From Escherichia coli (lineage in GTDB: Bacteria; Pseudomonadota; Gammaproteobacteria; Enterobacterales; Enterobacteriaceae), in assembly GCF_050320075.1 (NCBI RefSeq), contig NZ_CP190018.1: 64,000 nt of DNA. The stretch is one strand, 5' to 3'. The notes beneath the pieces are model-generated. The model did no database searches. It was not told the DNA's origin and was given only the letters and a program-made list of their open reading frames with translations. Made by a program: the position numbers and the translations under genes. Positions 32,044 through 48,685 of this stretch are shown here, one piece after another. Position 1 is the first letter of the stretch. Every line of letters begins with the position of its first letter.

Positions 32044-32270
32044 ATCATCGTTGTTTTTGTTGCAATAGTAGAATACGCGTATTTATTCCTCCATCTCTAT
32101 TAATAACGGCAATAAACTGTTCACTTCACTGATATTTAAAATATGTATCCTTTTCAAGCTGTTCAGCGGCGTAAGAAAAAGTATTAATTATGAATTCGAT
32201 GATTTAACCATATCTGTCTGATTGGTAATCATCCGTGATTAATGCTGGTCTATTGATTACGCCAGAACCC
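32044..32270 (+). repeat. degenerate second copy of the ykgR 3' region joined directly to a ykgO 3' end-like segment
   Basis: 32044-32160 aligns by eye (roughly 80 percent) with 13155-13270, and 32170-32270 with 13951-14065 (encodes ...AVQRRKKKY* versus ykgO ...AVQGRKKKR*); the ykgM/ykgO body is absent between them. Confidence 0.7.
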
Positions 32271-33177
32271 TCTCTAGCTTATTCACCGCCGCCACATACT
32301 TCGCCGGATTTTTATCTTTAAGCACCGCCAGATTGCGTTGCTTCCAGCGAATAGCCGGAAGATGCTGAATTTCAGGATAGCGATACCGCGACCAGTCAGG
32401 GCTGTTTTGCTTAAAACTGAGCAAGAACTCGCGATCCAGATCCGTAAGATGTGACTTCAACGCCTGCGGCAGCAAAGTCGTTACTGACAGAAGCGATTCC
32501 AGCGACGTTTCCTGTTGCGTCATCCCTGAAAATTCCTGCGCGTACAACGTGGCGATCCGCTCTGTATCCCAGTTTGGAGCCAGCAACTCGGCGATGGGGC
32601 GGGGATGGCCTGCCAGATAACAAAGAAAACCGTCAAAGATCTCCCGCATCAGTCCCGGTTTCTCCAGCATATTCAGCACATCAAACAGATCGCGCGGGTG
32701 CTGACGATCAAGCGCAGCGCAGATTTTACCGCCATAAAGATCCGCCAGCGAGACGACACTCATGGTGGTGAAGCCATACTCCATTTCCACACGTTCGCAC
32801 ACAGGCATTTCTGCCGGAGGCAACAACAGCCCGCGCCAGACCGGGCTAACCTCGATCTTAATCTTTGCATCAGCGGTATTCACAATGATGCGCTTTTCAT
32901 CCGCTTTATTTTCCTGCCGAATCGCGGTGATCCCCGGTCTGCCGTTCAGCGATGCAGTAATCCTCTTCAAAGCGTCGTTGATAGCCGCCAAATCAGTATC
33001 GCGATCCGCAAAGCTCTTGTACGCCAGATCAATATCCACCGACAGACGGGGAAAATCCTGCACAAACAAATTGATTGCGGTGCCGCCTTTCAACGCGAAA
33101 CAGGACTCCTTCGCCACATACGGCAGAGCGGCCATCAACAGTTTGACCTGCCGGGCATAGCTATCACGCAGATCCAT
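32257..33177 (-). CDS. AbiEii/AbiGii-family nucleotidyltransferase toxin (type IV TA / abortive infection)
   Basis: 306 aa; NTase motifs (ALKGGTAINLF, DIDL); overlaps the upstream antitoxin gene by 14 nt. Confidence 0.85.
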   Translation of the reverse strand: MDLRDSYARQVKLLMAALPYVAKESCFALKGGTAINLFVQDFPRLSVDIDLAYKSFADRDTDLAAINDALKRITASLNGRPGITAIRQENKADEKRIIVNTADAKIKIEVSPVWRGLLLPPAEMPVCERVEMEYGFTTMSVVSLADLYGGKICAALDRQHPRDLFDVLNMLEKPGLMREIFDGFLCYLAGHPRPIAELLAPNWDTERIATLYAQEFSGMTQQETSLESLLSVTTLLPQALKSHLTDLDREFLLSFKQNSPDWSRYRYPEIQHLPAIRWKQRNLAVLKDKNPAKYVAAVNKLERVLA

Positions 33178-33967
33178 CTTCGACTCCTTCCGGTTTAAAT
33201 GCGCGTGGAACAGTAATTTGATAATCCGGCTCCAGCCAGCCGCCGGGTATGATTTGCCGCTTTCCCGTACCTGTTTCTATACCGCTTTGATCAATATACT
33301 GAAAATAAGGGTGTCCATTACGCCGGGCAAGGTAAAGCATCACCCGGTTGGTTTTAACCGAATGGCTGGCGCGAAGCAGTGCCTGCAATTTGCGTGGGCT
33401 GAGAAGATTCAACCCCTGAAACAGAGCATCGGCATGTTCGAACGAGATTAACGAAGGAACGCCGCAGGCGATCTCATACGCGGCCAGTTCCGGAACACTG
33501 CCTGCTAACTGGCGGTCGCCAATTTTCAGTTCCGTAGTAAATGGCGTTACATCAGCGGTAAGGCCTGACGTATACAGCGTGACAAACGTTGCGGATTGTT
33601 CAAAGGCAGAAAACCATCCCGGCAGTTTGACGTAAGCCGGAAGCGCGAGCCAGACCTGCGGCTTACCCTGTTCGGTATAGTGCGCATGACCCTGAAGCGC
33701 AAGGCTGGTTAGCCCCGCCACCCGAACAGGCTTTTCCCACTGCGATTGCAGGCAGTAAACCGCATCCACCCAATCCGGTTCACGACCCGTCCGGCAGTAT
33801 ACGCCGTGAGCGATCCGCCTGAGCCAGCCATTCTTCACATAGAGATAAGAGAGCTTACGATCTATGCCGTTGCGGGTAAGCCATGACTGGAGCAGCACCT
33901 GGCCGGGTAGCGTGTGCTGCATCAGCCAGTTTAGATAGTTTGGCAACTGTCGCCTCTGAATAGACAT
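33164..33967 (-). CDS. AbiEi-family antitoxin / transcriptional regulator
   Basis: 267 aa, N-terminal winged-helix-like region; immediately upstream of and overlapping AbiEii. Confidence 0.8.
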   Translation of the reverse strand: MSIQRRQLPNYLNWLMQHTLPGQVLLQSWLTRNGIDRKLSYLYVKNGWLRRIAHGVYCRTGREPDWVDAVYCLQSQWEKPVRVAGLTSLALQGHAHYTEQGKPQVWLALPAYVKLPGWFSAFEQSATFVTLYTSGLTADVTPFTTELKIGDRQLAGSVPELAAYEIACGVPSLISFEHADALFQGLNLLSPRKLQALLRASHSVKTNRVMLYLARRNGHPYFQYIDQSGIETGTGKRQIIPGGWLEPDYQITVPRAFKPEGVEDGSA

Positions 33968-34261
33968 TAGTACAAATATTTAAACCAGTGTAGATTCAGG
34001 GATACGCCACAGCAAGAAATAGTTTACTTATTCCTCATTTTGTCGACTAAAAATCGACATTAAACAAAAAATTCAAACTTAATCACTTTCGGGAAAAATG
34101 TGACAAATATATGCTCGGACTGGTTGCGGGGAGCGTGTAACATGGATACAAATCAAAATTATTGCCAGCCTCACTGATGGATTACTGGTGTCAAGAGCCC
34201 CCCTTCGGGCATGAAACGGCTGGCTAATTCTGTACAGACTGTAATCTAAGGACGATAACGC

Positions 34262-37200
34262 ATGACATATCAGGCAATTTTCACTGGCTGGGATGATCTG
34301 ACGATTGAAGACCTTCTGGTCGCTTACCGGAAAGCAAAAGCCGATAGCTTCTTTGAGAATACATTTCCTGTTGCTATCAAATTTGCCGAGTATGAGCAGG
34401 AATTACTTGAAAACCTGCAAAAACTCTTAGATCTTTTGCAGAGCGAAGATGGATTCAGTAGCAATAAGAAGTTGATTGGCAAATTTCGATTGTTACCGAA
34501 AAAATTAACCACAAAGAAAAAACATGAATCCCAAAATGGACACGTCCACTTTTCTAATCCTAAACGAGCAGCCGACCATTTATTTAATAATTTTGATCTG
34601 ATACCAGAGTTTCGTATTATTGGTGACTTCCCGGTTGATAGTCACATTATCTCTGCACTATGGATTAACATGGTCGGGCATAAATTTGATGCCAGCTTAG
34701 ATAACTGTTGCTATGGCGCGCGGCTAAAGCGTATTCGTAATGATGAATTATTTAGCAATGAGCAGGATAATCCATTCCATATCAGTGCCGTGGGTTCTTT
34801 TAGCCCCTACTTCCAGCCCTACCAAAAATGGCGTGGTGATGGCTTAAAAGCTATACGTGACGAGTTGGAAAAAGATCGTGACATTATCGCCGCCTCACTG
34901 GATTTAAAAAGTTACTATCATTTTATTGATCCACTGGCTATAACCTCTGATGATCTCTATAACACACTAAACATAAAACTGACTGAGGATGAAAAAGCGT
35001 TTACTGCACAGTTAGCAGTATTCTTAAAGCACTGGTCTGACGGCGCAGCGGCATTTGGAAAGAAAATAGCGTACAAAACACCTGTTATTAATGGTGGTCT
35101 GGTCATTGGATTAACAGCCAGTCGGATCATTTCAAATATATTGCTACACCATTGGGATAAATTAGTCATTGAAAAACTATCACCAATTCACTACGGTCGT
35201 TATGTCGATGATATGTTCCTTGTAATACGCGATACAGGGACAATTACTAATAATCACGAATTTATGTTATTGCTGCAAGATAGGCTTGGCAATGATTGCG
35301 TTTATTTGAAAAACGAGCAAAAACAAATATGGCAAATACAGCAGGGCGAGCATTTCCAGGGTAAGACCACCATCCAGTTACAATCCGATAAGCAAAAACT
35401 TTTCGTGCTTCAAGGGAGGGCTGGAATAGACCTGCTCGACAGTATCGAAAAGGAGATCTACGAGCTTTCTAGTGAACACCGCTTGATGCCTTCACCGGAT
35501 CAACTGGAACACTCCACCGCAGCTAAAGTCCTTTCCGCTGCCGGTAGTGTAGGTGAAAATGCCGATACTCTGCGCCGTGCGGATGGATTAACCATTCGTC
35601 GTTTGGGCTGGTCACTGCAATTACGCTACGTTGAAACACTGGCACGAGATCTGCCTCCAAGTGAATGGAAAGAACAGCGGGAAGAGTTTTATCAGTTTGC
35701 CTACAACCATATTCTTAGGGCTGATAATCTATTTGCACATTTTAGTTATCTGCCAAGGCTGCTTGGCTTTGCTATCAGTATGAATGAATGGCAGCACGCG
35801 GAAAAAATTGTACTTAAAGCTTACGAATCCATCAACCTGTTGGCATCGGTGATTACTTCAGGTAAGGAAGTGAATATAAATGGTTGCAAAACTCGAGCAG
35901 TAAATGATCTTTGGCGCTGTATAAAAGGCACATTAAGCTGGCTATTTGTTGATGCAGCGACACGATATTACAGTCCTGACAGATTATTTCTTGATAAACG
36001 TTCAAAGAAAGAAGAGTGCCTTGCGGATACATTTTTTAATCATATTTCACAAAGTCTGACGAATCTAAAGGATTTACTGGATCTTCGCTTTGATTCAGCA
36101 GATTTTTATTTAAAAGCGCCATTGGTAGCTCGAGCTGATTTAGCAAAGGAACCTTATAAACAGATCGTAAAGAGTCAGTCGGCAGAAAAACTTGTTAATC
36201 AGCGTGATAGTAAAAAAGAAGTTAAAATACTGAAATTAATGAGCGACTCATCGCTTATTGATATTGACGTTATTAAGCTATTTTTGAAATCAACCAAGAA
36301 TACCCGACTGGAAAAAGTGGCTAAAGGAAATCGTAAGAACGAAAGTTACCTACCTTACATTTTCCCTACACGTCCTTTAACACCCGCTGAAATATCAGAA
36401 CTGGCCCCCGAATGTGTTGGATTACCCTCCACATCCGACAAAAAACCAGATGAGAGACCGTCCACCATTTGGGCAAAATATACTCAAGCATTACGCGGAG
36501 TATGGATCAAACCGACGTTGCTAGCATCGGAGCAGGACTCAGATGAAGCGACAAAAAAAGCTCGGCCTAAGAAATTCATTCATATTGGCACAGACAGGAA
36601 ACATAAAGTTGTCGTTGCGCTAACCAGCATTAAAACAGAGGAGGACGACTGGGCTAAAATGGCCTGCAATAAATCTAACTTGTCCCGTTCAAGGTACCAG
36701 CGGATTTCTGAACTGGTTAATGCAACATTGAAACTATCTCCTAAACCTGATTATGTTTTATTCCCTGAGCTTTCAATCCCGTTACGCTGGGTTAACAGTA
36801 TTGCTGATCGTTTGAGTTCGGCGGGTATCAGTCTAATTGCGGGAACAGAATACCGCCACTTAGACGATAATCAACTGAAGAGTGAGGCCGTACTTGTCCT
36901 TTCAGATAACAGACTCGGCTATCCAGCGAGTGTCAAAATATGGCAACCCAAGCTGGAACCCGCCGTAGGTGAAGATGAGGCATTATTTTCAATTTATGGT
37001 AAGTCTTGGGATTCGACACTTAATGTTAAACAACGTAAGCCGGTATATATTCATCACGGCGTCAATTTTGGCGTTATGATTTGCTCTGAACTCCAGAATA
37101 GTAAAGCGAGGATCCGTTTTCAGGGCGCACTCGATGCATTAATGGTATTGAGCTGGAATAAAGATCTAGATACGTTTGCATCGTTGATTGAATCAGCAGC

Positions 37201-37471
37201 GCTGGATATTCATGCCTATACTATTTTAGTGAATAACCGAAAATACGGCGATAGTCGCGTACGTTCCCCGGCAAAAGAACCCTTTATGCGTGATATTGCT
37301 CGTGTGAAGGGCGGTGATAATGACTTTGTGGTCGCTGCAACGCTGGATATCGACTCGTTAAGGGCATTTCAGAGCAGGGCAAAACGCTGGCCTAAAGGCG
37401 GCGATAAATTCAAACCGTTACCTGAAGGATTCCAGTTGGCAAAGAACCGCAAAAAGCTACCGCCAAAATAA
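34262..37471 (+). CDS. reverse transcriptase fused to a C-terminal nitrilase (carbon-nitrogen hydrolase) domain; DRT type 1 / UG1-like defence RT
   Basis: 1069 aa. RT motif A ASLDLKSYYHFID, motif B GGLVIGLTASRIISNILL, motif C YGRYVDDMFLV (YxDD). C-terminal domain has nitrilase catalytic-triad contexts FPELSIP (Glu) and GVMICSE (Cys). AT-rich relative to flanks. Confidence 0.85.
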   Translation: MTYQAIFTGWDDLTIEDLLVAYRKAKADSFFENTFPVAIKFAEYEQELLENLQKLLDLLQSEDGFSSNKKLIGKFRLLPKKLTTKKKHESQNGHVHFSNPKRAADHLFNNFDLIPEFRIIGDFPVDSHIISALWINMVGHKFDASLDNCCYGARLKRIRNDELFSNEQDNPFHISAVGSFSPYFQPYQKWRGDGLKAIRDELEKDRDIIAASLDLKSYYHFIDPLAITSDDLYNTLNIKLTEDEKAFTAQLAVFLKHWSDGAAAFGKKIAYKTPVINGGLVIGLTASRIISNILLHHWDKLVIEKLSPIHYGRYVDDMFLVIRDTGTITNNHEFMLLLQDRLGNDCVYLKNEQKQIWQIQQGEHFQGKTTIQLQSDKQKLFVLQGRAGIDLLDSIEKEIYELSSEHRLMPSPDQLEHSTAAKVLSAAGSVGENADTLRRADGLTIRRLGWSLQLRYVETLARDLPPSEWKEQREEFYQFAYNHILRADNLFAHFSYLPRLLGFAISMNEWQHAEKIVLKAYESINLLASVITSGKEVNINGCKTRAVNDLWRCIKGTLSWLFVDAATRYYSPDRLFLDKRSKKEECLADTFFNHISQSLTNLKDLLDLRFDSADFYLKAPLVARADLAKEPYKQIVKSQSAEKLVNQRDSKKEVKILKLMSDSSLIDIDVIKLFLKSTKNTRLEKVAKGNRKNESYLPYIFPTRPLTPAEISELAPECVGLPSTSDKKPDERPSTIWAKYTQALRGVWIKPTLLASEQDSDEATKKARPKKFIHIGTDRKHKVVVALTSIKTEEDDWAKMACNKSNLSRSRYQRISELVNATLKLSPKPDYVLFPELSIPLRWVNSIADRLSSAGISLIAGTEYRHLDDNQLKSEAVLVLSDNRLGYPASVKIWQPKLEPAVGEDEALFSIYGKSWDSTLNVKQRKPVYIHHGVNFGVMICSELQNSKARIRFQGALDALMVLSWNKDLDTFASLIESAALDIHAYTILVNNRKYGDSRVRSPAKEPFMRDIARVKGGDNDFVVAATLDIDSLRAFQSRAKRWPKGGDKFKPLPEGFQLAKNRKKLPPK

Positions 37472-37817
37472 GAAACTGATTTTCGCTATTAATAATCAGG
37501 GTATTTTTGCGTGAGATGTTGGTAAACATGATGTAGCCCTTGCCACTCATGACCAATCGCAGTATCTTTCTCCCGCGCCTGCAAAATCAGGCGTCGGGAT
37601 TAGCCTCCTGAAGAAATCTTATCGGCGACACATGACGCGCCAGCGTCTTTTTTTGTGTTGTTCGCACGGTTACATCTCAATGGTGGGCCGGGCGGGGGCG
37701 TCGCAAGACGCGCCAGTGTCCGATAAGGCTGGTAAGGCTAACCCTGCCCGGTTCCACCACCCGCGAGATTAGCCTCTCCGGTGGTGGCTTGAACACCCAC
37801 TTATCGGAGGTTGCCCT

Positions 37818-39142: not shown

Positions 39143-41476
39143 TCAGGTTGTTGCAGGGTCGTCACATTTTGGCAGCCAGTCGCCGTAGCTTTCCTCTTTC
39201 AGCGTCAGGTTGGTCTGTATCCCCTGTTTGGTATGGCGCTTCTCGTAATTCAGTCCGTATTCCTTCAGCATCACCGGCAGCCCCAGCCCGAACATTTTCA
39301 GACTGAGTACATTCCGGTAGCCGTTTGCCTCCATGTAGGCCAGATAGGCGTGATAGAGGTATTTACGGTAATTACGCGGGATGATACTGGCGTTCCCCAT
39401 ATACATGCCGCTGGTCTGCGGCAGGGTTTCCAGATAGCCGATAAAATCAAACGTCGGGTCGGCATCCCGTTTGATGTTCAGCGCCTCGTCTGAGTTCTGC
39501 TGGGACTGAAGCAGTGACCGGGCGAGCATCGGGTCGCTGAACTTCTGCATCAGGTGACGCACGATGACCGCCAGCTCGCGGGTGATTTTGTCCTTAAGCT
39601 GCGGGTCGCGCTCCTGCGGGGCTATCTGTTCCGGGAAGTGAATAATCACCCGCCGGCGTGACACGCCGCCGCTGCGGTCGGTGAAGCGCATCGGGTTATT
39701 GTTCACGGCCAGAATTACCGCCGGGATATGCGTGGAGTATGCATCCCGGTATTTCGGGTCAACGGACACCGCATCGCCGCCGGTGATGGCCTTGAGTCCG
39801 GCACCGTCGCCGCTCCATTTTTCCTGGTCCGGCAGGCGTATCAGTGAGAAGCCAGTTAACGCGGCACGTTCACGCGGGGATTCCAGCGTCTCGATGGTGG
39901 CCGACGTGGCGTTATCCTCCCCGGCCAGCAGGGTGGCTATTTCGGCCATGATACTTTTGCCGCTGCCGCCGGGACCGGTCACCTCCAGAAAGAGCTGCCA
40001 GTCGTAGCGGTTTGCCAGCACCATAAACAGTGCGGCCAGAATCACGTCGCGTTTTTCCGCACGGCCACCGGCGGCACGGTCAAGCCAGCGCCAGAACGCG
40101 GGGGCGTGGGTCTCCAGCGTTTCACCGTCCACCGGCGGGGTGAAATCCACATCGCACAGGGTGCGCATCCAGTGTGACGGACTGTGCGGGTGGAACGTGC
40201 CGTTCTGCGTGTCGAGCACGCCGTTACGAAAGCCAATCAGGCGGCGGGAGGGGGCTTCCTGCTGCGGAATAATCAGCTTCAGGGTGTCCACCACGGAGGC
40301 CACCTTCCCGGAGGAGAACGGCGCGCGCAGACGCTGAAACAGCCCGGCCACATCCCGGGCAAAGTCCTGTGGTGGCAGCACCTTCCAGACACCATTTTCA
40401 TAACGGGACAGAAGCTGGCCGTTGGCATCGACCGCGAGCGCCTCGCCGTAATGCTCATAGATACGCATGGCCTTTTCGCTGGTACTCATGGCGGAAAACT
40501 CCGCTTCGCTCATGGTGTCGAACGGGCTTTCAGCCGGTGGCCGGATGGCATCATAAATGGCCTTACGGGTGGCTTCCCCGCCGTACTGCGTGAAGGCATC
40601 ATTCCAGTCACCGAAGACCGGCGGCAGGGCAACAACGCCCTCACACGCATCTGCGGCTGCGGCGGCTTTTTTCTGGCCGTCACCGCTGAGGTCACGGTCT
40701 GCGGCAAGGACAATCTGACAGGCCGGATGCTTCTGCCGGGCAAGGCTGGCCAGAGAAAGGAGGTTCACGGAAGAAAGCGCCACCATCACCGTTTCACCGG
40801 TCAGGTGATGTACGGTAAGTGCGGTCGCGTATCCCTCCGCTATCCACAGACGTTTTCCGGCCTGATTCTGTCCTTCAAGGGTGTGACAGGTGCCCCTGAC
40901 CTGTCCGCCTTTCAGGGTGCGCTTACGGCCGTCAGCACTGATTAACTGAAGGTTAACCAGTTCGCCGCTGTCGTCATACAGTGGCACCACAAGGTCACCG
41001 GCACGCCAGCTCACGCCACCGGCTCTGTGTGTGCCGGTCAGCATCCGGCATTCCCGGCCGGGAAAGCCCTTGCGGGTCAGGTAGGCGTTACCGGTTCCGG
41101 GACGGGTTTTCGCCATCAGGGTTTGTGCCAGTGCGGCGGCGTTCTTCCGGGCAGCGTCTGTTTCAGCACCGGCGGCAGCCGTCACTGCCGGGTCAGCCGG
41201 GGGCAGGCTGCCGGTCACGGCAGCCACCTTTGCTGCCGCGTCGGACGGGGAAACACCAAACACCTTTTCAACCAGTTTCAGGCCGTCACCGGCACCACAC
41301 TGATTGCAGTACCAGGTGCCGCGCCCCTCCCTGTCATCAAAACGGAAGCGGTCACTCCCGCCACAGACCGGACAGGGCTGATGACGGTTTTTCAGCACCT
41401 GAATCCCCAGCGCCGGGAGAATACGCGGCCAGTGGCCGAGCGCATGGCTGACGGTGGCGGTTACGTTCATTTTCAT
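39143..41476 (-). CDS. alpha: P4 alpha-type primase-helicase
   Basis: 777 aa; N-terminal zinc-binding primase motif (CPVCGGSDRFRFDD...WYCNQCGAGDG), central and C-terminal helicase region; iterons on both sides. Confidence 0.9.
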   Translation of the reverse strand: MKMNVTATVSHALGHWPRILPALGIQVLKNRHQPCPVCGGSDRFRFDDREGRGTWYCNQCGAGDGLKLVEKVFGVSPSDAAAKVAAVTGSLPPADPAVTAAAGAETDAARKNAAALAQTLMAKTRPGTGNAYLTRKGFPGRECRMLTGTHRAGGVSWRAGDLVVPLYDDSGELVNLQLISADGRKRTLKGGQVRGTCHTLEGQNQAGKRLWIAEGYATALTVHHLTGETVMVALSSVNLLSLASLARQKHPACQIVLAADRDLSGDGQKKAAAAADACEGVVALPPVFGDWNDAFTQYGGEATRKAIYDAIRPPAESPFDTMSEAEFSAMSTSEKAMRIYEHYGEALAVDANGQLLSRYENGVWKVLPPQDFARDVAGLFQRLRAPFSSGKVASVVDTLKLIIPQQEAPSRRLIGFRNGVLDTQNGTFHPHSPSHWMRTLCDVDFTPPVDGETLETHAPAFWRWLDRAAGGRAEKRDVILAALFMVLANRYDWQLFLEVTGPGGSGKSIMAEIATLLAGEDNATSATIETLESPRERAALTGFSLIRLPDQEKWSGDGAGLKAITGGDAVSVDPKYRDAYSTHIPAVILAVNNNPMRFTDRSGGVSRRRVIIHFPEQIAPQERDPQLKDKITRELAVIVRHLMQKFSDPMLARSLLQSQQNSDEALNIKRDADPTFDFIGYLETLPQTSGMYMGNASIIPRNYRKYLYHAYLAYMEANGYRNVLSLKMFGLGLPVMLKEYGLNYEKRHTKQGIQTNLTLKEESYGDWLPKCDDPATT

Positions 41477-41490
41477 GGTGTTGTTCTCCT

Positions 41491-41811
41491 TCAGTGCAGT
41501 ACCGGCGCTTTTATGTGACGGGCACAGAGTTCATCCATCACAACCAGCCCGAGAAAGGACAGCGACGGCGCGGCCTTCAGGGGGCCGGATTCCATTAAAT
41601 CTTCCAGCAGGGCACAGGCTATCTGACGCCCTTTTTCCTCACCGTGCTGGCGCAGATAAAAGCCTTCCAGCTCAGCGGCGATGGCCGCCTCCAGTGATTC
41701 AAGGGTGAGATGCGGGTAGCGGTGCTGACGTTCGCACACGGTCAGCCAGGCACAGGCGACAGCGCGACGGTAAAGGGCTGCGCGTAAGACGGGCGGTAAG
41801 GGTGTTTTCAT
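41491..41811 (-). CDS. P4-family conserved hypothetical protein (106 aa)
   Basis: ORF directly upstream of alpha in the left operon. Confidence 0.55.
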
Positions 41812-41946
41812 TTGTTTTCCTCCCTGTGACAGATGACTGCATTCCGTGCCGGTTGCATTAACTGATAAGGCATATCTGCGTCTCCTGAAGACGTGCGTAT
41901 CCCTGCGCGAATACGCACATTTAATTTTTCGGGTGTCGTTTTTTAA

Positions 41947-42402
41947 TTACAGATAATTGCGGTAACTGTTATCCGGGGTGATTTCCGGGTCAGGCTCCGT
42001 GCGGGGAATTTCCCGCCATTCCCGCGCCACCGGTGCCGCCCGGCTGGCCGGAACAGTGTCCTGCGGGTAAATATCCAGATATTTCTCCCGCCATTTCTGT
42101 AATTCCGGGTCTCCGGCCATTTCTTTCAGTACCGCATGCCGGTTTACGGGGCTGCGTTTAAACAGGTCAGGACGGTCACAGGTAAATTCCCGCAGAAAAC
42201 GCCCCAGCGGGATGTCTGTGGTGCGCCCGTCAGCGAGGATACGCACAAGGATACTGAATTTACGGCGGTACGGGTTCCAGACAATGTCCGGGCAGCGGTA
42301 CGGCATTTCCCACGGAATACCGTCTTCCAGAATGCCGACCACGGCCACATCGGGAAAACCGGCAGAACGGTAAATCTCACCGGGCTGGGGAAAATCAAAC
42401 AT
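41947..42402 (-). CDS. P4-family conserved hypothetical protein (151 aa; P4 orf151-like position)
   Basis: ORF in the alpha operon; size and position as in P4. Confidence 0.55.
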   Translation of the reverse strand: MFDFPQPGEIYRSAGFPDVAVVGILEDGIPWEMPYRCPDIVWNPYRRKFSILVRILADGRTTDIPLGRFLREFTCDRPDLFKRSPVNRHAVLKEMAGDPELQKWREKYLDIYPQDTVPASRAAPVAREWREIPRTEPDPEITPDNSYRNYL

Positions 42403-42682
42403 GCGTCCTGTCTCCCCGGTCTTTCTGCTGGGCGAGAAAATCGCGGCACAGGCCTTTGGCTTTCAGTTCATTCAGCACAAAATCAATATCTTCATTCAGG
42501 TAGCTGAAAATATGCGGAATGTAGAGCTGATGCAGGCCGGAGAGTTCACGGTGAATCAAATCACCCCCAACAAACCGGGATACGGCGCTGGCGCGGTTGA
42601 GCTTATGGTAAGCCTCAATGCTGAGGTGTTCACGGGCGTCATGACGCGCTGAGACGGTCTGAGGGGCTTTTTTATTACGCAC
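42395..42682 (-). CDS. P4-family small protein with probable GTG start (95 aa; epsilon-like position)
   Basis: GGAGG RBS 6 nt upstream of GTG at 42682; ORF ends overlapping the orf151-like start; the 177-aa ORF in the track is probably an over-extension. Confidence 0.4.
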
Positions 42683-42875
42683 GGGACACCTCCACCACCG
42701 GCAGACGGGCAGCAAGGGAGAGCACATAGTCACGGACAAGGGAACGGCGGGCGCTGCGTTCATCACCGGCGACGGTGCGAAGCATACAGATACGGGGATG
42801 ACGATCTGCGCGACGGACAGCCGCAAACACAAAGACAAATTCAGGGTGTGAGGTGGTAAGGGTTGTAGCCATGAT
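42675..42875 (-). CDS. P4-family small hypothetical protein (66 aa, [26 protein letters not shown]...)
   Basis: Short ORF immediately downstream of the immunity-RNA region; stop overlaps the next start. Confidence 0.4.
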
Positions 42876-42883
42876 GGCAGCCT

Positions 42884-43136
42884 CCTTGAAGTAACAGTTA
42901 CAGCTACCACTGGAGTTCCTACGCTCATGGGTGGTAGCCCGGACGGGGGTAGGAATACCGGCCTTCAAGGAAACCGGCCAGCCCGAAGGCTGCCCCGCCC
43001 GGACCACCATTATCTGACAGAGGCTACGGTTTAAAAACCACAGCCAGAAAAACAGGTGTGCCGAAGCAACGACGTAAAAAAAGACGCATGGCGCGTCATA
43101 TGTCGCCTTGAAGTAACTCGGGTTCCTACGCCCGGC
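42884..43136 (-). ncRNA. P4-type RNA immunity region (CI-RNA-like seqB flanked by complementary seqA / seqC-like repeats)
   Basis: Direct repeats CCTTGAAGTAAC...GTTCCTACGC at 42884-42924 and 43106-43136, and between them (42949-42971) GGTAGGAATACCGGCCTTCAAGG, complementary to both; in the untranslated leader of the left operon. Confidence 0.5.
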
Positions 43137-43225
43137 TGCCGATTTTGCGGCAGCGGAAAAACTATATCCGCAAATGCCGGAAAAAGGCAAGCCAGAAAAA
43201 GGGACTTTTTGCAGAACAGGCATCA

Positions 43226-43492
43226 TCATGCGTCATACCCCCGTTGGCGTCCGGCAATGCGGCCGGCCATCCATGCGGTGACTTCAGAGTGCAGCCAGGC
43301 CACATTTTTACCGCCAAGACTCACCTGCGGCGGAAATTCCCCCTTACGGATGAGTTCATAGATGGTCGAGCGTGACAGGCCGCACAGGTGCATCACTTCC
43401 GGCAGACGTAAAAAACGCTCCTGCGTGATGTCCGGCAGCGGCATCAGTGGCGTCACAGGGGCGGGAGACGGGGAAGAAAAAACAGCTTGCAT
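43226..43492 (-). CDS. alpA: AlpA-family phage regulatory protein (small MerR-like HTH)
   Basis: [50 protein letters not shown] is the AlpA signature; true start may be the internal Met (43444). Confidence 0.85.
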
Positions 43493-43769
43493 CGGGCTAC
43501 CTCGTTAATGTCCATACAGCACCGGATAAGTCCGTCCGGCTTCTGGTAGCGCTTTATTTTGTGAATATTTTCAGCAGACGCAACAGGGGGAATTTGTTCC
43601 GGCAACCTTACAATGGCTGTGTGTTTTTTATCCATCTGGACTGGAAGGGTCTCAAAGGGTTCTGAAGGACCTGGAATTTTTTATAGTGAAATACAAATTG
43701 TTTTTTCTTATTTATTTCAGTGAATTAATAAAAATAAACAGTGATAAACAGCATAAAAAGCCCATCAAC

Positions 43770-43880
43770 GGGTGAACAGTGGTGAACAGACGGTGAACAG
43801 TCATTACTGCGATTGTTCACCCTTTAACTTACTGTATTACTTATCTTTTTTCTTATGGTGAACAGAGGTGAACAGTAAAA
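43770..43880. repeat. P4-type origin of replication: six GGTGAACA / TGTTCACC iterons
   Basis: GGTGAACAGTGGTGAACAGACGGTGAACAG (43771-43800), TGTTCACC (43815-43822), GGTGAACAGAGGTGAACAG (43858-43876), within AT-rich DNA between alpA and sid. Confidence 0.8.
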
Positions 43881-44043
43881 TATAAAAAAACAAACAGTAA
43901 GCCGGTTTTTCCTGCGACCTTTTCCTGGCTTGCCGGTCTGAGGATGAGTCTCCTGTGTCAGGGCTGGCACATCTGCAATGCGTCGTGTTGCTGTCCGGTG
44001 TACGTCACAATTTTCTTAACCTGAAGTGACGAGGAGCCGGAAA

Positions 44044-44778
44044 ATGTCTGACCACACTATCCCTGAATATCTGCAACCCGCACTGGCACAACTGGAAAAG
44101 GCCAGAGCCGCCCATCTTGAGAACGCCCGCCTGATGGATGAGACCGTCACGGCCATTGAACGGGCAGAGCAGGAAAAAAATGCGCTGGCGCAGGCCGACG
44201 GAAACGACGCTGACGACTGGCGCACGGCCTTTCGTGCAGCCGGTGGTGTCCTGAGCGACGAGCTGAAACAGCGCCACATTGAGCGCGTGGCACGCCGGGA
44301 GCTGGTACAGGAATATGACAATCTGGCCGTGGTGCTGAATTTCGAACGTGAACGCCTGAAAGGGGCGTGTGACAGCACGGCCACCGCCTACCGGAAGGCA
44401 CATCATCACCTTCTGAGTCTGTATGCAGAGCATGAGCTGGAACACGCCCTGAATGAAACCTGTGAGGCGCTTGTCCGGGCAATGCATCTGAGCATTCTGG
44501 TACAGGAAAATCCGCTCGCCAACACCACCGGCCATCAGGGCTACGTCGCACCCGATAAGGCTGTCATGCAGCAGGTGAAATCATCGCTGGAACAGAAAAT
44601 TAAACAGATGCAAATCAGCCTCAGCGGCGAGCCGGTTCTCCGGCTGACCGGACTGTCAGCGGCAACACTTCCGCACATGGATTATGAGGTGGCAGGCACA
44701 CCGGCACAGCGCAAGGTGTGGCAGGACAAAATAGACCAGCAGGGAGCAGAGCTTAAGGCCAGAGGACTGCTGTCATGA
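44044..44778 (+). CDS. sid: P4 Sid-type capsid size determination (external scaffold) protein
   Basis: 244 aa from the internal Met (MSDHTIPEYLQPALAQLEKARAAH...), coiled-coil rich; followed by delta and psu. Confidence 0.85.
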   Translation: MSDHTIPEYLQPALAQLEKARAAHLENARLMDETVTAIERAEQEKNALAQADGNDADDWRTAFRAAGGVLSDELKQRHIERVARRELVQEYDNLAVVLNFERERLKGACDSTATAYRKAHHHLLSLYAEHELEHALNETCEALVRAMHLSILVQENPLANTTGHQGYVAPDKAVMQQVKSSLEQKIKQMQISLSGEPVLRLTGLSAATLPHMDYEVAGTPAQRKVWQDKIDQQGAELKARGLLS

Positions 44779-45275
44779 TTTACTGCCCGTCGTGTGGACA
44801 TGTTGCTCACACCCGTCGCGCACATTTCATGGACGATGGCACCAAGATAATGATTGCACAGTGCCGGAATATTTATTGCTCTGCGACATTTGAAGCGAGT
44901 GAAAGCTTTTTCTCTGACAGTAAAGATTCAGGAATGGAATACATTTCAGGCAAACAGAGATACCGCGATTCACTGACGTCAGCCTCCGGCAGTATGAAAC
45001 GCCCGAAAAGAATGCTTGTTACCGGATATTGTTGTCGGAGATGTAAAGGCCTTGCACTGTCAAGAACATCGCGGCGTCTGTCTCAGGAAGTCACCGAGCG
45101 TTTTTATGTGTGCACGGATCGGGGCTGTGGTCTGGTGTTTAAAACGCTTCAGACCATCAACCGTTTCATTGTCCGCCCGGTCACGCCGGACGAACTGGCA
45201 GAACGCCTGCATGAAAAACAGGAACTGCCGCCAGTACGGTTAAAAACACAATCATATTCGCTGCGTCTGGAATGA
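44775..45275 (+). CDS. delta: P4 Delta-type late transcription activator (tandem Ogr-like zinc fingers)
   Basis: 166 aa; two CxxC...CxxC zinc-finger units (MIYCPSCGH...CRNIYC and YCCRRCKG...CTDRGC). Confidence 0.9.
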   Translation: MIYCPSCGHVAHTRRAHFMDDGTKIMIAQCRNIYCSATFEASESFFSDSKDSGMEYISGKQRYRDSLTSASGSMKRPKRMLVTGYCCRRCKGLALSRTSRRLSQEVTERFYVCTDRGCGLVFKTLQTINRFIVRPVTPDELAERLHEKQELPPVRLKTQSYSLRLE

Positions 45276-45348
45276 GGGCTGCCGGTTAACACCGGCCGTC
45301 GCCGCACACCGTATTTTTATTCTTCAGCATGATGAGAAAGAGATAACG

Positions 45349-45921
45349 ATGGAAAGCACAGCCTTACAGCAGGCCTTTGACACCTGTCAGAATAACAAAG
45401 CAGCATGGCTGCAACGCAAAAATGAGCTGGCAGCGGCCGAACAGGAATATCTGCGGCTTCTGTCAGGAGAAGGTAGAAACGTCAGTCGCCTGGACGAATT
45501 ACGCAATATTATCGAAGTCAGAAAATGGCAGGTGAATCAGGCTGCCGGTCGTTATATTCGTTCGCATGAAGCCGTTCAGCACATCAGCATCCGCGACCGG
45601 CTGAATGATTTTATGCAGCAGCACGGCACAGCACTGGCGGCCGCACTGGCACCGGAGCTGATGGGCTACAGTGAGCTGACGGCCATTGCCCGAAACTGTG
45701 CCATACAGCGTGCCACAGATGCCCTGCGTGAAGCCCTTCTGTCCTGGCTTGCGAAGGGGGAAAAAATTAATTATTCCGCACAGGATAGCGACATTTTAAC
45801 GACTATCGGATTCAGGCCTGACGCGGCTTCTGTGGATGACAGCCGTGAAAAATTCACCCCTGCGCAGAACATGATTTTTTCGCGTAAAAGTGCGCAACTG
45901 GCATCACGTCAGTCTGTGTAA
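45349..45921 (+). CDS. psu: P4 Psu-type polarity suppression / capsid decoration protein
   Basis: 190 aa; last gene of the sid-delta-psu operon, followed by cos. Confidence 0.85.
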   Translation: MESTALQQAFDTCQNNKAAWLQRKNELAAAEQEYLRLLSGEGRNVSRLDELRNIIEVRKWQVNQAAGRYIRSHEAVQHISIRDRLNDFMQQHGTALAAALAPELMGYSELTAIARNCAIQRATDALREALLSWLAKGEKINYSAQDSDILTTIGFRPDAASVDDSREKFTPAQNMIFSRKSAQLASRQSV

Positions 45922-46085
45922 AATTCCCCGAAAATCCGCCTGTTTTTACTGAAAAAAGCCATGCATCGATAAGGTGCATGGCTTTGCATGCGTTTTCCTG
46001 CCTCATTTTCTGCAAACCGCACCATTCCCGGCGCGGTCTGAGCGTGTCAGTGCAACTGCATTAAAACCGCCCCGCAAAGCGGGCG

Positions 46086-46104
46086 GGCGAGGCGGGGAAA
46101 GCAC
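46086..46104 (+). other. cos cohesive-end sequence of P2/P4 type
   Basis: GGCGAGGCGGGGAAAGCAC matches the 19-nt P2/P4 cohesive end as I recall it; position just downstream of psu fits P4. Confidence 0.65.
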
Positions 46105-46122
46105 TGCGCGCAACAATGATGA

Positions 46123-47517
46123 TTATGATTTCATTTTATCTGCAATATCTTCTAAGGAATCAAAGAATGCTTTGACAAAGTTGTCTTTATTAACAGTAGT
46201 AAAGTTTTGATTGTAAAATCCTACACATGCAGAAAAAATTGCTCTGCAAGTTAGCTCATTATATTTAGATGAATATAATGGTTCGACTCCACGATACACG
46301 GACCAAGAACCATGAGCTATATCAGACCTAGTCTTATACATTTCCTGAGCCACTCTAGCCCATTTTTTTTCATCTTGATAATAAATAGAAACTAATGAAG
46401 AAACACGACTTACGAAGTTCTTTGTTGTAGATGAATCCTTTTTTTCGCTACTTAGACTAACCAGCCGTTCAAGAGCCGTTGTTAATTTTACTATACGAGA
46501 ACTTTCATCCTTATCCTGTTGTGCGCTACTAAATAAATAGATAGCATCAATTAGCCTGTCTGCAATTACAGAGTTTTCATGAGGTTCTATCGCCAACTCT
46601 ATTAACCGAGAAAGAACTAACCCTAAGTCAGATTTGTAATCATCTTCAAACTTATTCCAAAACTCACCGCTATTGGCTATAGTCCCTTTAGTTGAGTAAT
46701 GATAGTTAAACATTTCGTTTGGTTTCTTGGAAAGATAAAAGCCGTCATAATTTGGGTAAGGATCTGTTGATATACTTAAAAAGTATGGGGAGATATTATA
46801 GTGCACACCAAATAGCTGTAGTATCCCAACCACAAAACATGCAATATTTTTAGCGATTCTCTGCCTACTTAACTTAGAGCGTTTGCTAACAGGGATTTTT
46901 AGGTAGTGTTTATAATGAAATTTATGAGAAGAACAAAATTTCTTAGCTAAATCAAGTTGTTGCTCAGTAAAATCATCACTAATAGTTAAGTGCATTTTTT
47001 CTGCCGATATAATATCAACTCGGCCAATAGACATTATATCTCGTTCCAACCCGTGAGCTAAAATAGGATAATAAAAATCCTCTTCAGACATTTCTCTCCT
47101 TGTTAGTTTTAATGTTTTATTTAGGAGGATAGTACATCCACTCCTGTCGCAACTGCCGTTCTCAACCCAAATATGCATAAACAATATTTTCTTAAGATTA
47201 CTTAAAAATTCATCGGTAGTAACTAGCATTTCTAAGCGATTTGATTTTATAAATCTAGCCGAAATAGCATATAACTTCTCATAAGAGGCATATGATAGAT
47301 GAATTTGAGTTCTAGAAAGATCTGTTCTTCCTTTTATTAGTTCATATGGTGCATCTATGGTCATTCCCAATGAACCAAAATTACCATTATATTCTTTTTT
47401 GTAAAATTCCATAAAATTAGATGAGGATGTTAACTCTTTATTTATTCTAACAGCCTCATCAAGAATAAATTTAAAATCTTTAACGTCTTCCAAACTGGCA
47501 CTCATCATTTTCACCAT
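46123..47517 (-). CDS. uncharacterised 464-aa protein in the P4 psu-int hotspot; C-terminal HEPN-like Rx4H motif; candidate anti-phage effector
   Basis: Strongly AT-rich versus the GC-rich flanking P4 genes; sits between cos/psu and int; C-terminal region contains RSDIAHG (R-x4-H-G, as in HEPN RNases); no Walker or other obvious motif; start overlaps the int 3' end. Confidence 0.7.
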   Translation of the reverse strand: MVKMMSASLEDVKDFKFILDEAVRINKELTSSSNFMEFYKKEYNGNFGSLGMTIDAPYELIKGRTDLSRTQIHLSYASYEKLYAISARFIKSNRLEMLVTTDEFLSNLKKILFMHIWVENGSCDRSGCTILLNKTLKLTRREMSEEDFYYPILAHGLERDIMSIGRVDIISAEKMHLTISDDFTEQQLDLAKKFCSSHKFHYKHYLKIPVSKRSKLSRQRIAKNIACFVVGILQLFGVHYNISPYFLSISTDPYPNYDGFYLSKKPNEMFNYHYSTKGTIANSGEFWNKFEDDYKSDLGLVLSRLIELAIEPHENSVIADRLIDAIYLFSSAQQDKDESSRIVKLTTALERLVSLSSEKKDSSTTKNFVSRVSSLVSIYYQDEKKWARVAQEMYKTRSDIAHGSWSVYRGVEPLYSSKYNELTCRAIFSACVGFYNQNFTTVNKDNFVKAFFDSLEDIADKMKS

Positions 47518-48685
47518 TTAAATTAATAATAAAATCACTATACCACTGCATCATTTTCTTTCGATCTTCTATATACTGTGCATGATTATATACACCACGT
47601 ATCGTGTTTTTATCCACATGAGCCAACTGCATTTCAATCCAAGCAGTATTAAAACCATTTTCATGGAGTATTGTTGATAATGTATGCCTAAATCCATGTC
47701 CTGTAAGTTTTCCCGCATAGCCTATGCGTTTGATAAGTTGATTAACACTTGCCTCACTCATAGGTTTGTTTGGATCATTCCGTCCCGGGAAAACATAACG
47801 ATAATTTCCTGTCATAGATTTAAGTTCATTAAGAAAGCCTAATACCTGGGTCGATAAGGGGACTAGGTGCGGCCTACGCATTTTCATTTTTTCGGCAGGA
47901 ATTTCCCAAATAGCGTTGTCCAGATCAAACTCTTGCCATAATGCCGCTCGCAACTCGATAGTTCTAACCCCAGTAACCATCAATAATTTTGTGGCAATCT
48001 GAACAAGTCGGCTTCCTGCATAACTATCTAAAGCACGCAGAAAATCAGGTATCTCATCTGATTTTAAGAAAGGAAAATGATTTGATTTGTGTACTTCGAG
48101 GGCACTGGACAGATCTGCCGCAGGATTAAACTCTGCTCTTCCGGTAGCAATAGCATATCGAAAAACCTCTGAGCAACGTTGCCGCACTTTGCGCATTTTC
48201 TCCAATGCACCACGTTTCTCAATTTTACGCAGCACATTTAGCAATTCTAGCGGTTTAATTTCCCCTACAGGCCTCGTCCCTACATACGGAAAAATATCAT
48301 TTTGGAACGCCTCAATAATATCTGAGGCATACCCAGCAGACCATTTTGCCGACTTCATCTGATGCCACTCTCTGGCAATCTTTTCGAATGCGTTCTCAGA
48401 TTGAATTCGTAATGCTAATTTTTGTTCTTTTCGAACCTCACTAGGATTTTTTCCCTCGGCCACTATTTTTCTGGCCTCATCACGGCGGGCGCGAGCTTCA
48501 GCAAGTGTGATCGTTGGATAAACACCAAGCGAGATCATTTTAGGTTTACCTGCATAGCGATAACGAAATCGCCAGCTTTTACTTCCATTTGGCTCTACAA
48601 GTAAAGACAACCCTTGCCCATCCCCAAGTGTATAGGCTTTAGCTTCAGGTTTAGCACGGCGAATCTGCATATCATTTAGGGGCAT
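47480..48685 (-). CDS. int: P4-type tyrosine integrase
   Basis: 401 aa; N-terminal arm-binding region (MPLNDMQIRRAKPEAKAYTLGDGQGL), C-terminal catalytic region (HGFRHT...YNHAQY); start faces the tRNA fragment 165 bp away. Confidence 0.95.
   Translation of the reverse strand: MPLNDMQIRRAKPEAKAYTLGDGQGLSLLVEPNGSKSWRFRYRYAGKPKMISLGVYPTITLAEARARRDEARKIVAEGKNPSEVRKEQKLALRIQSENAFEKIAREWHQMKSAKWSAGYASDIIEAFQNDIFPYVGTRPVGEIKPLELLNVLRKIEKRGALEKMRKVRQRCSEVFRYAIATGRAEFNPAADLSSALEVHKSNHFPFLKSDEIPDFLRALDSYAGSRLVQIATKLLMVTGVRTIELRAALWQEFDLDNAIWEIPAEKMKMRRPHLVPLSTQVLGFLNELKSMTGNYRYVFPGRNDPNKPMSEASVNQLIKRIGYAGKLTGHGFRHTLSTILHENGFNTAWIEMQLAHVDKNTIRGVYNHAQYIEDRKKMMQWYSDFIINLNGENDECQFGRR

Follow-up and report, generated by a model that had tools for sequence, protein, structure and literature searches.

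The spacer between divergent abiE and RT-nitrilase genes in Escherichia coli is probably a mosaic of AbiE-linked DNA and the end of an RT cassette

The spacer that separates the divergent AbiE and RT-nitrilase genes of an Escherichia coli defence locus is probably a mosaic of three parts, the abiE control region, an AbiE-linked block and the end of the RT cassette, and it probably holds no RT-associated RNA. The locus was analysed within a window of 64,000 nucleotides, which is the whole stretch of DNA to which all positions refer. The features of the locus are listed in Table 1.

Results

Gene layout and the start of abiEi

The AbiE genes on the minus strand and the RT gene on the plus strand diverge across 33968-34261, which is a distance of 294 nt. 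On this point the coordinates, Pfam and PADLOC agree with the initial annotation. The genes on the left were identified with Pfam as AbiEi_3 and AbiEii (E = 8e-36 and 3e-35), and AbiEi contains the DNA-binding AbiEi_3_N domain together with AbiEi_3. On the right, the residues YVDD (314-317) of RT and the residues E836, C941 and E943 of its nitrilase domain were invariant in 23 homologues. The latter three presumably include the catalytic Glu and Cys. The RT gene is at least 99% identical across about 260 E. coli genomes.

The mechanical open reading frame of AbiEi begins with an ATG at 33967 and that of RT with an ATG at 34262. The ATG at 33967 is unconserved among the aligned AbiE loci and missing in L005. 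The TTG at 33946 was invariant in all 12 aligned AbiE loci, likewise the AGAGG upstream of it, and the PGAP start is the same TTG. The true start of abiEi is almost certainly this TTG, and the spacer therefore measures 315 nt (33947-34261).

Table 1. Features of the spacer and the adjoining genes, with positions in the window
Feature	Position	Strand	Basis or remark
abiEii	32257-33177	-	Pfam
abiEi (AbiEi_3 antitoxin, wHTH regulator)	33164-33946	-	Pfam and PADLOC; start = TTG 33946
Proximal 19-bp palindrome, candidate AbiEi operator O1	33948-33966	.	in abiEi sense TGTCTATTCAGAGGCGACA
Predicted -10 of the abiE promoter	33987-33992	-	TACACT in abiEi sense; sigma-70-like score
Predicted -35 of the abiE promoter	34010-34015	-	TTGCTG in abiEi sense; 17-nt spacer to the -10
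Distal 19-bp palindrome, candidate AbiEi operator O2	34041-34059	.	TGTCGACTAAAAATCGACA; the inverted repeat of the initial annotation
AbiE-linked block	34060-34170	.	holds the A-rich motif AAAAAATTCAAACTT (34065-34079) and the core CGTGTAAC (34134-34141)
Left end of the RT cassette, 29 nt	34171-34199	+	begins where the homology to RT-less E. coli stops
Relic of the 3' end of kwaB (Kiwa)	34200-34249	+	nhmmer, protein match, frameshift
Predicted RT ribosome-binding site AAGGA	34248-34252	+	overlaps the relic stop; 12-nt kwaB-RT spacer to 34261
UG5-large RT-nitrilase gene, 1069 aa, intact	34262-37471	+	PADLOC PDLC03780, E = 0
3' tail of the RT cassette	37472-37538	+	homology to hsdRMS-type E. coli resumes at about 37539

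The left part of the spacer belongs to AbiE

The spacer was compared by BLAST with 5426 complete E. coli genomes, and 832 records with a match were obtained. The full length was matched in 260 of these (259 genomes), and 555 matched bases 1-203 only (33968-34170), with about 82% identity. In L001, which was sampled from the shorter matches, hsdR-hsdM-hsdS is found beyond AbiE in the place of RT, and another E. coli variant has HTH genes and dptFGH in the cargo slot. The flanks were alike in all E. coli variants, with ykgR on the left and a decayed P4-like satellite and tRNA-Thr on the right. The isrK/C4-like RNAs at 37562-37764 belong to this satellite and are common to the RT-less genomes.

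The homology with RT-less E. coli stops at 34170/34171 and resumes at about 37539 in the comparison with the hsdRMS-type locus. RT therefore lies in a cassette of 3.4 kb (34171-37538), which carries just 91 nt upstream of RT. The left part of the spacer, up to 34170, belongs to AbiE, whichever neighbour is present (RT, type I R-M, Dpt or others).

The block between the distal palindrome and the cassette junction is common to RT-less E. coli (L001, L002), Serratia, UBA5654, Enterobacter and Lonsdalea. Around the core CGTGTAAC it was conserved in about half of the AbiE loci, and several loci were without it. A small open reading frame on the minus strand with an ATG at 34143, MLHV(L/P)FKPTE.I, was attractive at first, with several differences at third codon positions. 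It was rejected, since the copy in the window has no protein-level conservation, L081 is frameshifted, L104 has no ATG, and beyond codon 10 the frame is shifted by an indel while the DNA is still conserved.

The segments of the locus differed in their conservation between E. coli and Serratia. The identity was 88% for the abiEi coding sequence, 76% for the RT coding sequence, 68-69% for the abiE promoter/operator segments and 51% for the AbiE-linked block. The RT-linked leader was the least conserved segment with 45%.

Two related palindromes flank the predicted abiE promoter

Twelve AbiE loci from at least nine genera and with differing neighbour genes were aligned: three E. coli types, Serratia, UBA5654, Salmonella, Pectobacterium, Enterobacter, Lonsdalea, Trabulsiella, Symbiopectobacterium and Buttiauxella. 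Metagenomes scanned for the abiEi start motif yielded seven further distinct AbiE variants. Viral contigs scanned for AbiEi gave no match, and a tblastn search of plasmids with AbiEi gave, E. coli aside, relatives of at most 41% identity, which are too distant for comparing operators. The TTG start, the AGAGG and the -10 and -35 hexamers were common to the 12 loci at fixed positions. Palindromes were counted with the pattern TGTC-N11-GACA, allowing at most one mismatch, and their positions were counted from the TTG.

The proximal palindrome was found at -20 in 12 of 12 loci and in all seven metagenomic variants, with the consensus TGTCnA-N7-GCGACA in the abiEi sense. It spans the Shine-Dalgarno sequence of abiEi, which is CCTCT at 33953-33957 of the plus strand, and its end is 1 nt short of the TTG. 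The perfect inverted repeat GTCGACTAAAAATCGAC reported by the initial annotation is present at 34042-34058, and with one added pair it extends to TGTCGA-N7-TCGACA at 34041-34059. This distal palindrome occurred at -113 in nine of the 12 loci (at most one mismatch; the background is 0.034 per 135 nt), and among the metagenomic variants at -113 in L094, L103 and L104 and at -108 in L105. The genes next to it vary and include RT, hsdR, Dpt, DUF4747, a methylase and others. One compensatory change was seen in L082 (TGTCGC..GCGACA), and the common E. coli variant L001 carries a non-complementary change in the arms (TGTCTA..TTGACA). The palindrome is degenerate in L005 and missing or rearranged in the Salmonella-type L079, L089 and L093 and in L085 and L088. 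The two palindromes are related to each other (TGTCnA-N7-nCGACA) and are exactly 93 bp apart, about nine helical turns. Each is part of a module of about 38 nt that is repeated at a spacing of 93 with 71% identity (direct repeat D1).

The predicted -35 and -10 elements of the abiE promoter are flanked by the two palindromes. In a position-weight-matrix scan, TTGCTG-17-TACACT was the top sigma-70-like site of the minus strand (score 9.9), and the Serratia equivalent TTGTGA-17-TATAAT scored 14.1. The positions A2 and T6 of the -10 (form TAnAnT) and the subsequent GTTTAA were conserved across the AbiE loci, and the TTG of the -35 was kept at the same position in 11 of the 12. The transcription of abiE is predicted to start near 33980. 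A second abiE promoter upstream of the distal palindrome was considered and rejected, because its candidate -10 is unconserved. The abiE control region would extend over 33947-34059, with a promoter directed leftwards between the two palindromes.

Since antitoxins of the AbiEi family autorepress via inverted repeats in their promoters, the distal inverted repeat is most likely an operator for the AbiEi autorepressor. By analogy, the winged-helix N-terminal domain of AbiEi would bind both palindromes and repress its own operon. The initial annotation had suggested that the spacer may simply hold divergent promoters and operators. For the abiE side this is borne out by the position-conserved palindromes and the sigma-70-like promoter between them; for RT no convincing promoter was found.

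The right part of the spacer carries a relic of kwaB

Judged by its homologies, the right part of the spacer (34171-34261) is the end of the RT cassette and mostly a deletion scar of kwaB. A scan of the genomes of 100,044 species led to 75 RT loci, and the 36 with at least 58% identity and an intact N-terminus were compared. Relatives of RT with 70-82% identity are common in Gammaproteobacteria. In 18 of the 36 loci a gene on the same strand either overlaps the RT start codon or ends at most 25 nt ahead of it. The commonest gene upstream of RT codes for a KwaB-like protein of 277 aa (PADLOC KwaB, E 4e-9 to 6e-13), and one locus has a canonical KwaB in this place (PADLOC, E = 1e-81). KwaA and KwaB follow HsdM and HsdS upstream of RT in nine loci, and the array hsdM-hsdS-kwaA-kwaB-RT was also observed in Citrobacter and Salmonella.

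An nhmmer profile was built from six kwaB-RT loci, with 200 nt upstream of RT taken from each. It had a single match in the 64-kb window, at 34200-34257 (E = 7.8e-9). The relic reads TTC GGG CAT GAA A/CGG CTG GCT AAT TCT GTA CAG ACT GTA ATC TAA. In translation, F G H E precedes a 2-nt deletion, which shifts the frame, and R L A N S V Q T V I and the stop come after it. Intact KwaB homologues end with ..PFGQEKRLANSVQAL*, and the match at the protein level comprises KRLANSVQ and the stop. Neither an intact kwaB open reading frame nor kwaA was found at the locus, where about 16 codons are left that include the 2-nt deletion. The sequence 34171-34199 showed no similarity to kwaB above that of shuffles, and an extension of the relic leftwards to 34171 was rejected for this reason. 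The 12-nt gap between kwaB and RT, together with an AAGGAC motif, was the same in six other loci (L052, L035, L034, L028, L107 and L108).

The closest relative outside E. coli, L106, has an RT of 82% identity and the order hsdR-hsdM-hsdS, 92 nt with a shorter relic, RT and ash. The hsdR-hsdM pair of L106 has 85% identity to the one found in place of RT in the other E. coli type. Both E. coli flanks are present in L106, and its right flank matches both E. coli types. From this arrangement, the two cargo states of E. coli look like alternative deletions of a tandem ancestor. RT would ancestrally have been the last gene of an hsdM-hsdS-kwaA-kwaB-RT array, of which the upstream genes were probably deleted in the E. 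coli lineage. It would thereby have retained the ancestral ribosome-binding site and lost the operon that formerly transcribed it.

Transcription of RT

No convincing sigma-70 promoter for RT was found in the position-weight-matrix scan, in which the maximum of the plus strand was 6.9, and a second promoter scan of the spacer showed no sigma-70 site for RT either. The sole position-conserved promoter candidate on the plus strand was TCGGAC-17-TAACAT at 34115-34143, with a weak score of 5.4. Since the upstream genes of the array have been deleted, RT would be transcribed from the AbiE-linked part (34016-34170).

Searches for a structured RNA

An Rfam search of the spacer gave no match, even at E values up to 10. 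The whole spacer folded no better than its shuffles (z = +0.95 for the plus strand and -0.88 for the minus strand). The RT-linked 91 nt and the AbiE-linked block showed no excess folding (z = +0.5 to +0.7, with a value of +0.68 among the scores); the block (z = +0.5 to +0.6) had no consensus structure. When seven orthologous spacers were analysed with RNAalifold on both strands, only the palindrome hairpin was returned (6-8 bp, -5 to -6 kcal/mol), with one compensatory pair. Structure conservation and covariation, which the initial annotation had proposed as a check across homologous loci, showed nothing beyond this hairpin in these spacers.

The upstream and downstream flanks of the RT loci were compared all against all by BLAST, and no common non-coding element was detected beyond close relatives. 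The RT loci with long upstream spacers likewise had nothing in common beyond close relatives, and no conserved element was found downstream of RT. A scan of 33800-34400 for intrinsic terminators (GC-rich hairpin and U-tract) found none, and no T run follows either hairpin. In the intact kwaB genes, the codons to which the relic is homologous differ at their third positions, a pattern that indicates a constraint at the level of the protein and not of an RNA.

The GC-rich segment CAAGAGCCCCCCTTCGGGCATG, for which stem formation had been proposed, is present at 34192-34213 and straddles the start of the kwaB relic, so that part of it lies in the relic. It allows only a 4-bp stem (GCCC/GGGC). As a hairpin it was rejected because of these 4 bp only and its absence from the homologues.

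Discussion

Alternative explanations

A structured non-coding RNA in the spacer could serve RT as a template, primer or scaffold, as in DRT2, DRT3, DRT9 and the retrons. The premise of the initial annotation is sound, as several defence RTs do use, and require, an adjacent non-coding RNA (PMC9226505); the spacer is the sole sizeable non-coding stretch at the RT start, and weak hairpins are possible in the leader. Nevertheless, a partner RNA is extremely improbable here. The inverted repeat and the left 200 nt belong to AbiE and recur next to hsdR or Dpt in genomes without RT. Of the 91 nt that the cassette carries upstream of RT, at least 62 nt are the frameshifted kwaB relic and its spacer, and half of the RT homologues (18 of 36) have no upstream spacer but a same-strand gene at most 25 nt away or overlapping. 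The RT loci have no non-coding element in common on either side, the spacer has no Rfam match, excess folding or consensus structure, and between E. coli and Serratia no segment of the locus is less conserved than the leader. The RT is of class 3 (UG5-large), and the nearest studied RT-nitrilases point in the same direction, with a UG5-large system for which no non-coding RNA was found and DRT1, which is template-free. Also very unlikely is a function of the inverted repeat at the RNA level, where its hairpin would serve as the stabiliser, attenuator or processing site of an mRNA leader, instead of as protein-binding DNA. Both strands are predicted to form a hairpin (-5.9 and -7.9 kcal/mol), the change in L082 from A-T to C-G is compensatory, and those in L005 leave G-U pairing possible on the plus strand. 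Yet a symmetric protein site predicts a compensatory change of the palindrome equally, and in L001, which represents about 555 E. coli records, the central pair is broken on both strands (U-U or A-A). The hairpin has no U-tract after it on either strand. With the predicted abiE promoter downstream of it, the distal repeat would be outside the abiE mRNA, and the second related palindrome, 93 bp away over the ribosome-binding site, fits a DNA-binding repressor. That the repeat is a functionless chance palindrome in a neutral AT-rich spacer would agree with the shuffles, as an inverted repeat with 6-bp arms (3-12 nt loop) occurred in 45% of the dinucleotide shuffles of the region. The distal repeat was taken as real because it is conserved in position, not because it is improbable by itself. 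Among 19 distinct AbiE upstream regions from many genera, 12 keep its position at -113 and the 93-bp spacing to the second copy, the surroundings have diverged to less than 70% identity in the same comparison, and the background of the pattern is low. A chance origin is very improbable in view of these data.

The reading of the two palindromes as AbiEi operators could be extended, without excluding it, to a bidirectional AbiE-linked region in which AbiEi bound at the distal palindrome controls a rightward promoter of the cargo. Within the RT cassette itself there is no promoter-like site (best score 5.0). The approximately 110 nt past the distal palindrome go with AbiE in roughly half of the loci, and their end coincides exactly with the cargo junction. 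The palindrome of L001 is abutted by a strong rightward sigma-70-like site, TTGAGA-18-TACATT (12.4), and the TAACAT hexamer is position-conserved with a fixed 17-nt spacing to TCGRTY. Against this control, which we regard as unlikely, stand the degeneration of the strong L001 site in the window, in Serratia and in Lonsdalea, the poor score of the conserved TAACAT candidate (5.4), which is broken in L104, and the absence of the block from several AbiE loci. It is decidedly unlikely that the distal palindrome and the block up to 34170 form an outward-facing module by which the cargo of the slot is transcribed under the antitoxin AbiEi. If this were true, the state of the AbiE toxin-antitoxin pair and the expression of a second abortive-infection effector would be coupled. 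The cargo would be the promoterless RT-nitrilase without its Kiwa and type I R-M partners in this locus and hsdRMS in other E. coli.

Implications

The result is mainly a negative one: for a UG5-large RT-nitrilase that is present in about 260 complete E. coli genomes, there is no comparative-genomic sign of a partner RNA. This agrees with the recent evidence that RT-nitrilases of class 3 synthesise DNA template-free. A non-coding stretch beside a defence gene of an island can be the control region of the neighbour joined to a deletion scar, and module boundaries should be mapped first and RNA hypotheses raised afterwards. Modest by-products are a predicted operator layout for the enterobacterial AbiEi_3 antitoxins and the probable descent of this RT lineage from an hsdM-hsdS-kwaA-kwaB-RT array.

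Comparison with known systems

The defence RT groups named in the literature consulted as bearing a non-coding RNA are UG2, UG3+UG8, UG28 and UG27. Like DRT2/UG2, DRT3/UG3+UG8, DRT9/UG28 and the retrons (PMC9226505), the E. coli enzyme is a defence RT beside a non-coding stretch of about 300 bp. Unlike them, it is a class 3 RT (UG5-large, RT-nitrilase), and its spacer is not conserved with RT, has no conserved structure and is absent from half of the homologous RT loci. A conserved adjacent region, covariation and membership in an RNA-using RT group, by which DRT2, DRT3, DRT9 or retrons would be recognised, were all lacking.

The class 3 UG/Abi RTs include UG5-large, and no associated non-coding RNA has been reported for this class. 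With the UG5-large DRT11 of Sinorhizobium meliloti, RNA-seq revealed no non-coding RNA, and the defence of this system survives a 179-bp upstream deletion (bioRxiv 10.64898/2025.12.16.694600). The class 3 RT DRT1 synthesises DNA in a protein-primed and template-free manner (PMC13275509). The RT of E. coli resembles DRT11 and DRT1 in its fusion to a C-terminal nitrilase, and like them it functions, or at any rate persists, with no transmembrane gene beside it. For both known systems no associated non-coding RNA is reported, and their mechanism is reported or proposed to be protein-primed and template-free. Unlike DRT11 of S. meliloti, to which it is only about 30% identical, the E. coli RT is known here from its sequence, and the missing RNA of DRT11 can thus be transferred by class only. 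A further difference to DRT11 and DRT1 is its apparent origin in a kwaA-kwaB-RT array located within a type I R-M operon. To kwaB of Kiwa (DUF4868), the relic is similar in that 34200-34249 is homologous to the last codons of the kwaB-like genes found immediately ahead of RT in eight related loci, and the stop position and the 12-nt spacer are the same. Unlike Kiwa, the locus has no kwaA and no kwaB open reading frame, and the roughly 16 frameshifted codons are a pseudogene remnant.

Antitoxins of the AbiEi family autoregulate via inverted repeats in their own promoters, and two arrangements have been described: PabiE of S. agalactiae has two 23-bp repeats that are 3 bp apart, and the Rv2827c promoter of M. 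tuberculosis has four repeats with 13-bp gaps within each pair (PMC7319586). The E. coli locus is like the type IV toxin-antitoxin AbiE of these two species (PMC7319586, PMC3985639) in its bicistronic order abiEi-abiEii with the antitoxin first, and like the characterised AbiEi in the N-terminal winged-helix DNA-binding domain. As in the characterised operators, the inverted repeats are located no farther than about 130 bp upstream of the start codon, in overlap with the promoter/ribosome-binding region, and the sites are multiple, as are the four repeats of Rv2827c. Unlike the characterised antitoxins, the protein belongs to the AbiEi_3 Pfam family (Enterobacteria), for which no operator was found in the AbiE operator literature consulted. 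Instead of 23-bp repeats spaced by 3-13 bp, two 19-bp palindromes 93 bp apart flank the promoter here, so the analogy is a loose one. The 23-bp architecture was not found; the palindromes at -20 and -113 are linked to abiE whatever the neighbour. In conclusion, the spacer is no more than a further example of an autoregulatory operator of a known kind.

Variable content between AbiE and a satellite remnant

In E. coli, the slot with AbiE on one side and a decayed P4-like satellite on the other varies in content. The RT occupies it in about 260 genomes, hsdRMS in a variant that stands for about 555 records, and HTH together with Dpt genes in other E. coli. In a metagenomic relative, hsdRMS is followed in tandem by the RT, and the right flank is unchanged, which suggests that the RT and hsdRMS states are alternative deletions from a single ancestor.

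On the left side lies an AbiE-linked block with the conserved core CGTGTAAC, which roughly one AbiE locus in two contains. Neither an RNA structure nor a good promoter match was detected in this block. A possible minus-strand upstream ORF (MLHV..) in it was rejected as a general feature, as it was not kept consistently. The start of abiEi is most likely the conserved TTG at 33946, giving 260 amino acids, whereas the mechanical ORF list instead places it at the ATG at 33967 (267 amino acids).

Just downstream of the RT cassette, Rfam matches were observed to isrK (68.8 bits), the C4 antisense RNA (71.1 bits) and the a1b1 target of C4. These belong to the decayed satellite (ash, a hypothetical gene, truncated HTH and integrase). 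The same remnant is present in genomes without the RT, and none of the three is therefore linked to the RT. Further to the right lies a second P4-like satellite, apparently intact, in which a HEPN-domain protein is encoded between psu and the integrase gene. This interval is likely a satellite defence hotspot.

Genes at the start of the RT

In half of the RT loci, a defence gene on the same strand ends right at the RT start, and the family of this upstream gene differs. The RT behaves like a promoterless gene tacked onto the ends of diverse operons. In Enterobacteriaceae bacterium UBA5654, the order of abiEi, gene relic and RT matches that in E. coli and Serratia; the RT is broken there into ORFs of 604 and 398 amino acids and is probably a pseudogene.

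An array of hsdM-hsdS-kwaA-kwaB-RT was found in 9 loci of different genera, with the UG5-large RT-nitrilase as the final gene. The gap between kwaB and the RT is only 12-22 nt, except in L017, where it measures 55 nt. No published connection between Kiwa and UG5 turned up in a literature search. The arrays may represent a functional three-gene module or merely a stable defence-island neighbourhood.

Positions of the features in the window and in the comparison loci (L numbers)
Feature	Position or locus	Detail
abiEi start	33944-33967	
AbiE-linked block	34086-34170	
Slot with RT	34171-37538	
Slot with hsdRMS	L001:6263-12206	E. coli
hsdRMS-RT tandem	L106:1-8200	metagenomic
isrK, C4, a1b1	37562-37764	
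Second P4-like satellite	39143-48685	primase, Icd-like, delta, psu, integrase, HEPN-domain protein
HEPN-domain protein	~46123-47508	
Split RT	L005:4001-7216	UBA5654
hsdM-hsdS-kwaA-kwaB-RT	L052, L035, L034, L028, L051, L044, L107, L108	~2590-4000 in each
hsdM-hsdS-kwaA-kwaB-RT	L017:2478-3945	
AAA ATPase upstream of RT	L007, L009, L024	4-nt overlap or abutting
Fic/DOC upstream of RT	L006, L054, L077, L049	gap 5-18 nt
HsdS-like C-termini upstream of RT	L067, L029	gap 14 nt
Putative type I R-M-like gene upstream of RT	L014, L016	gap 14-15 nt
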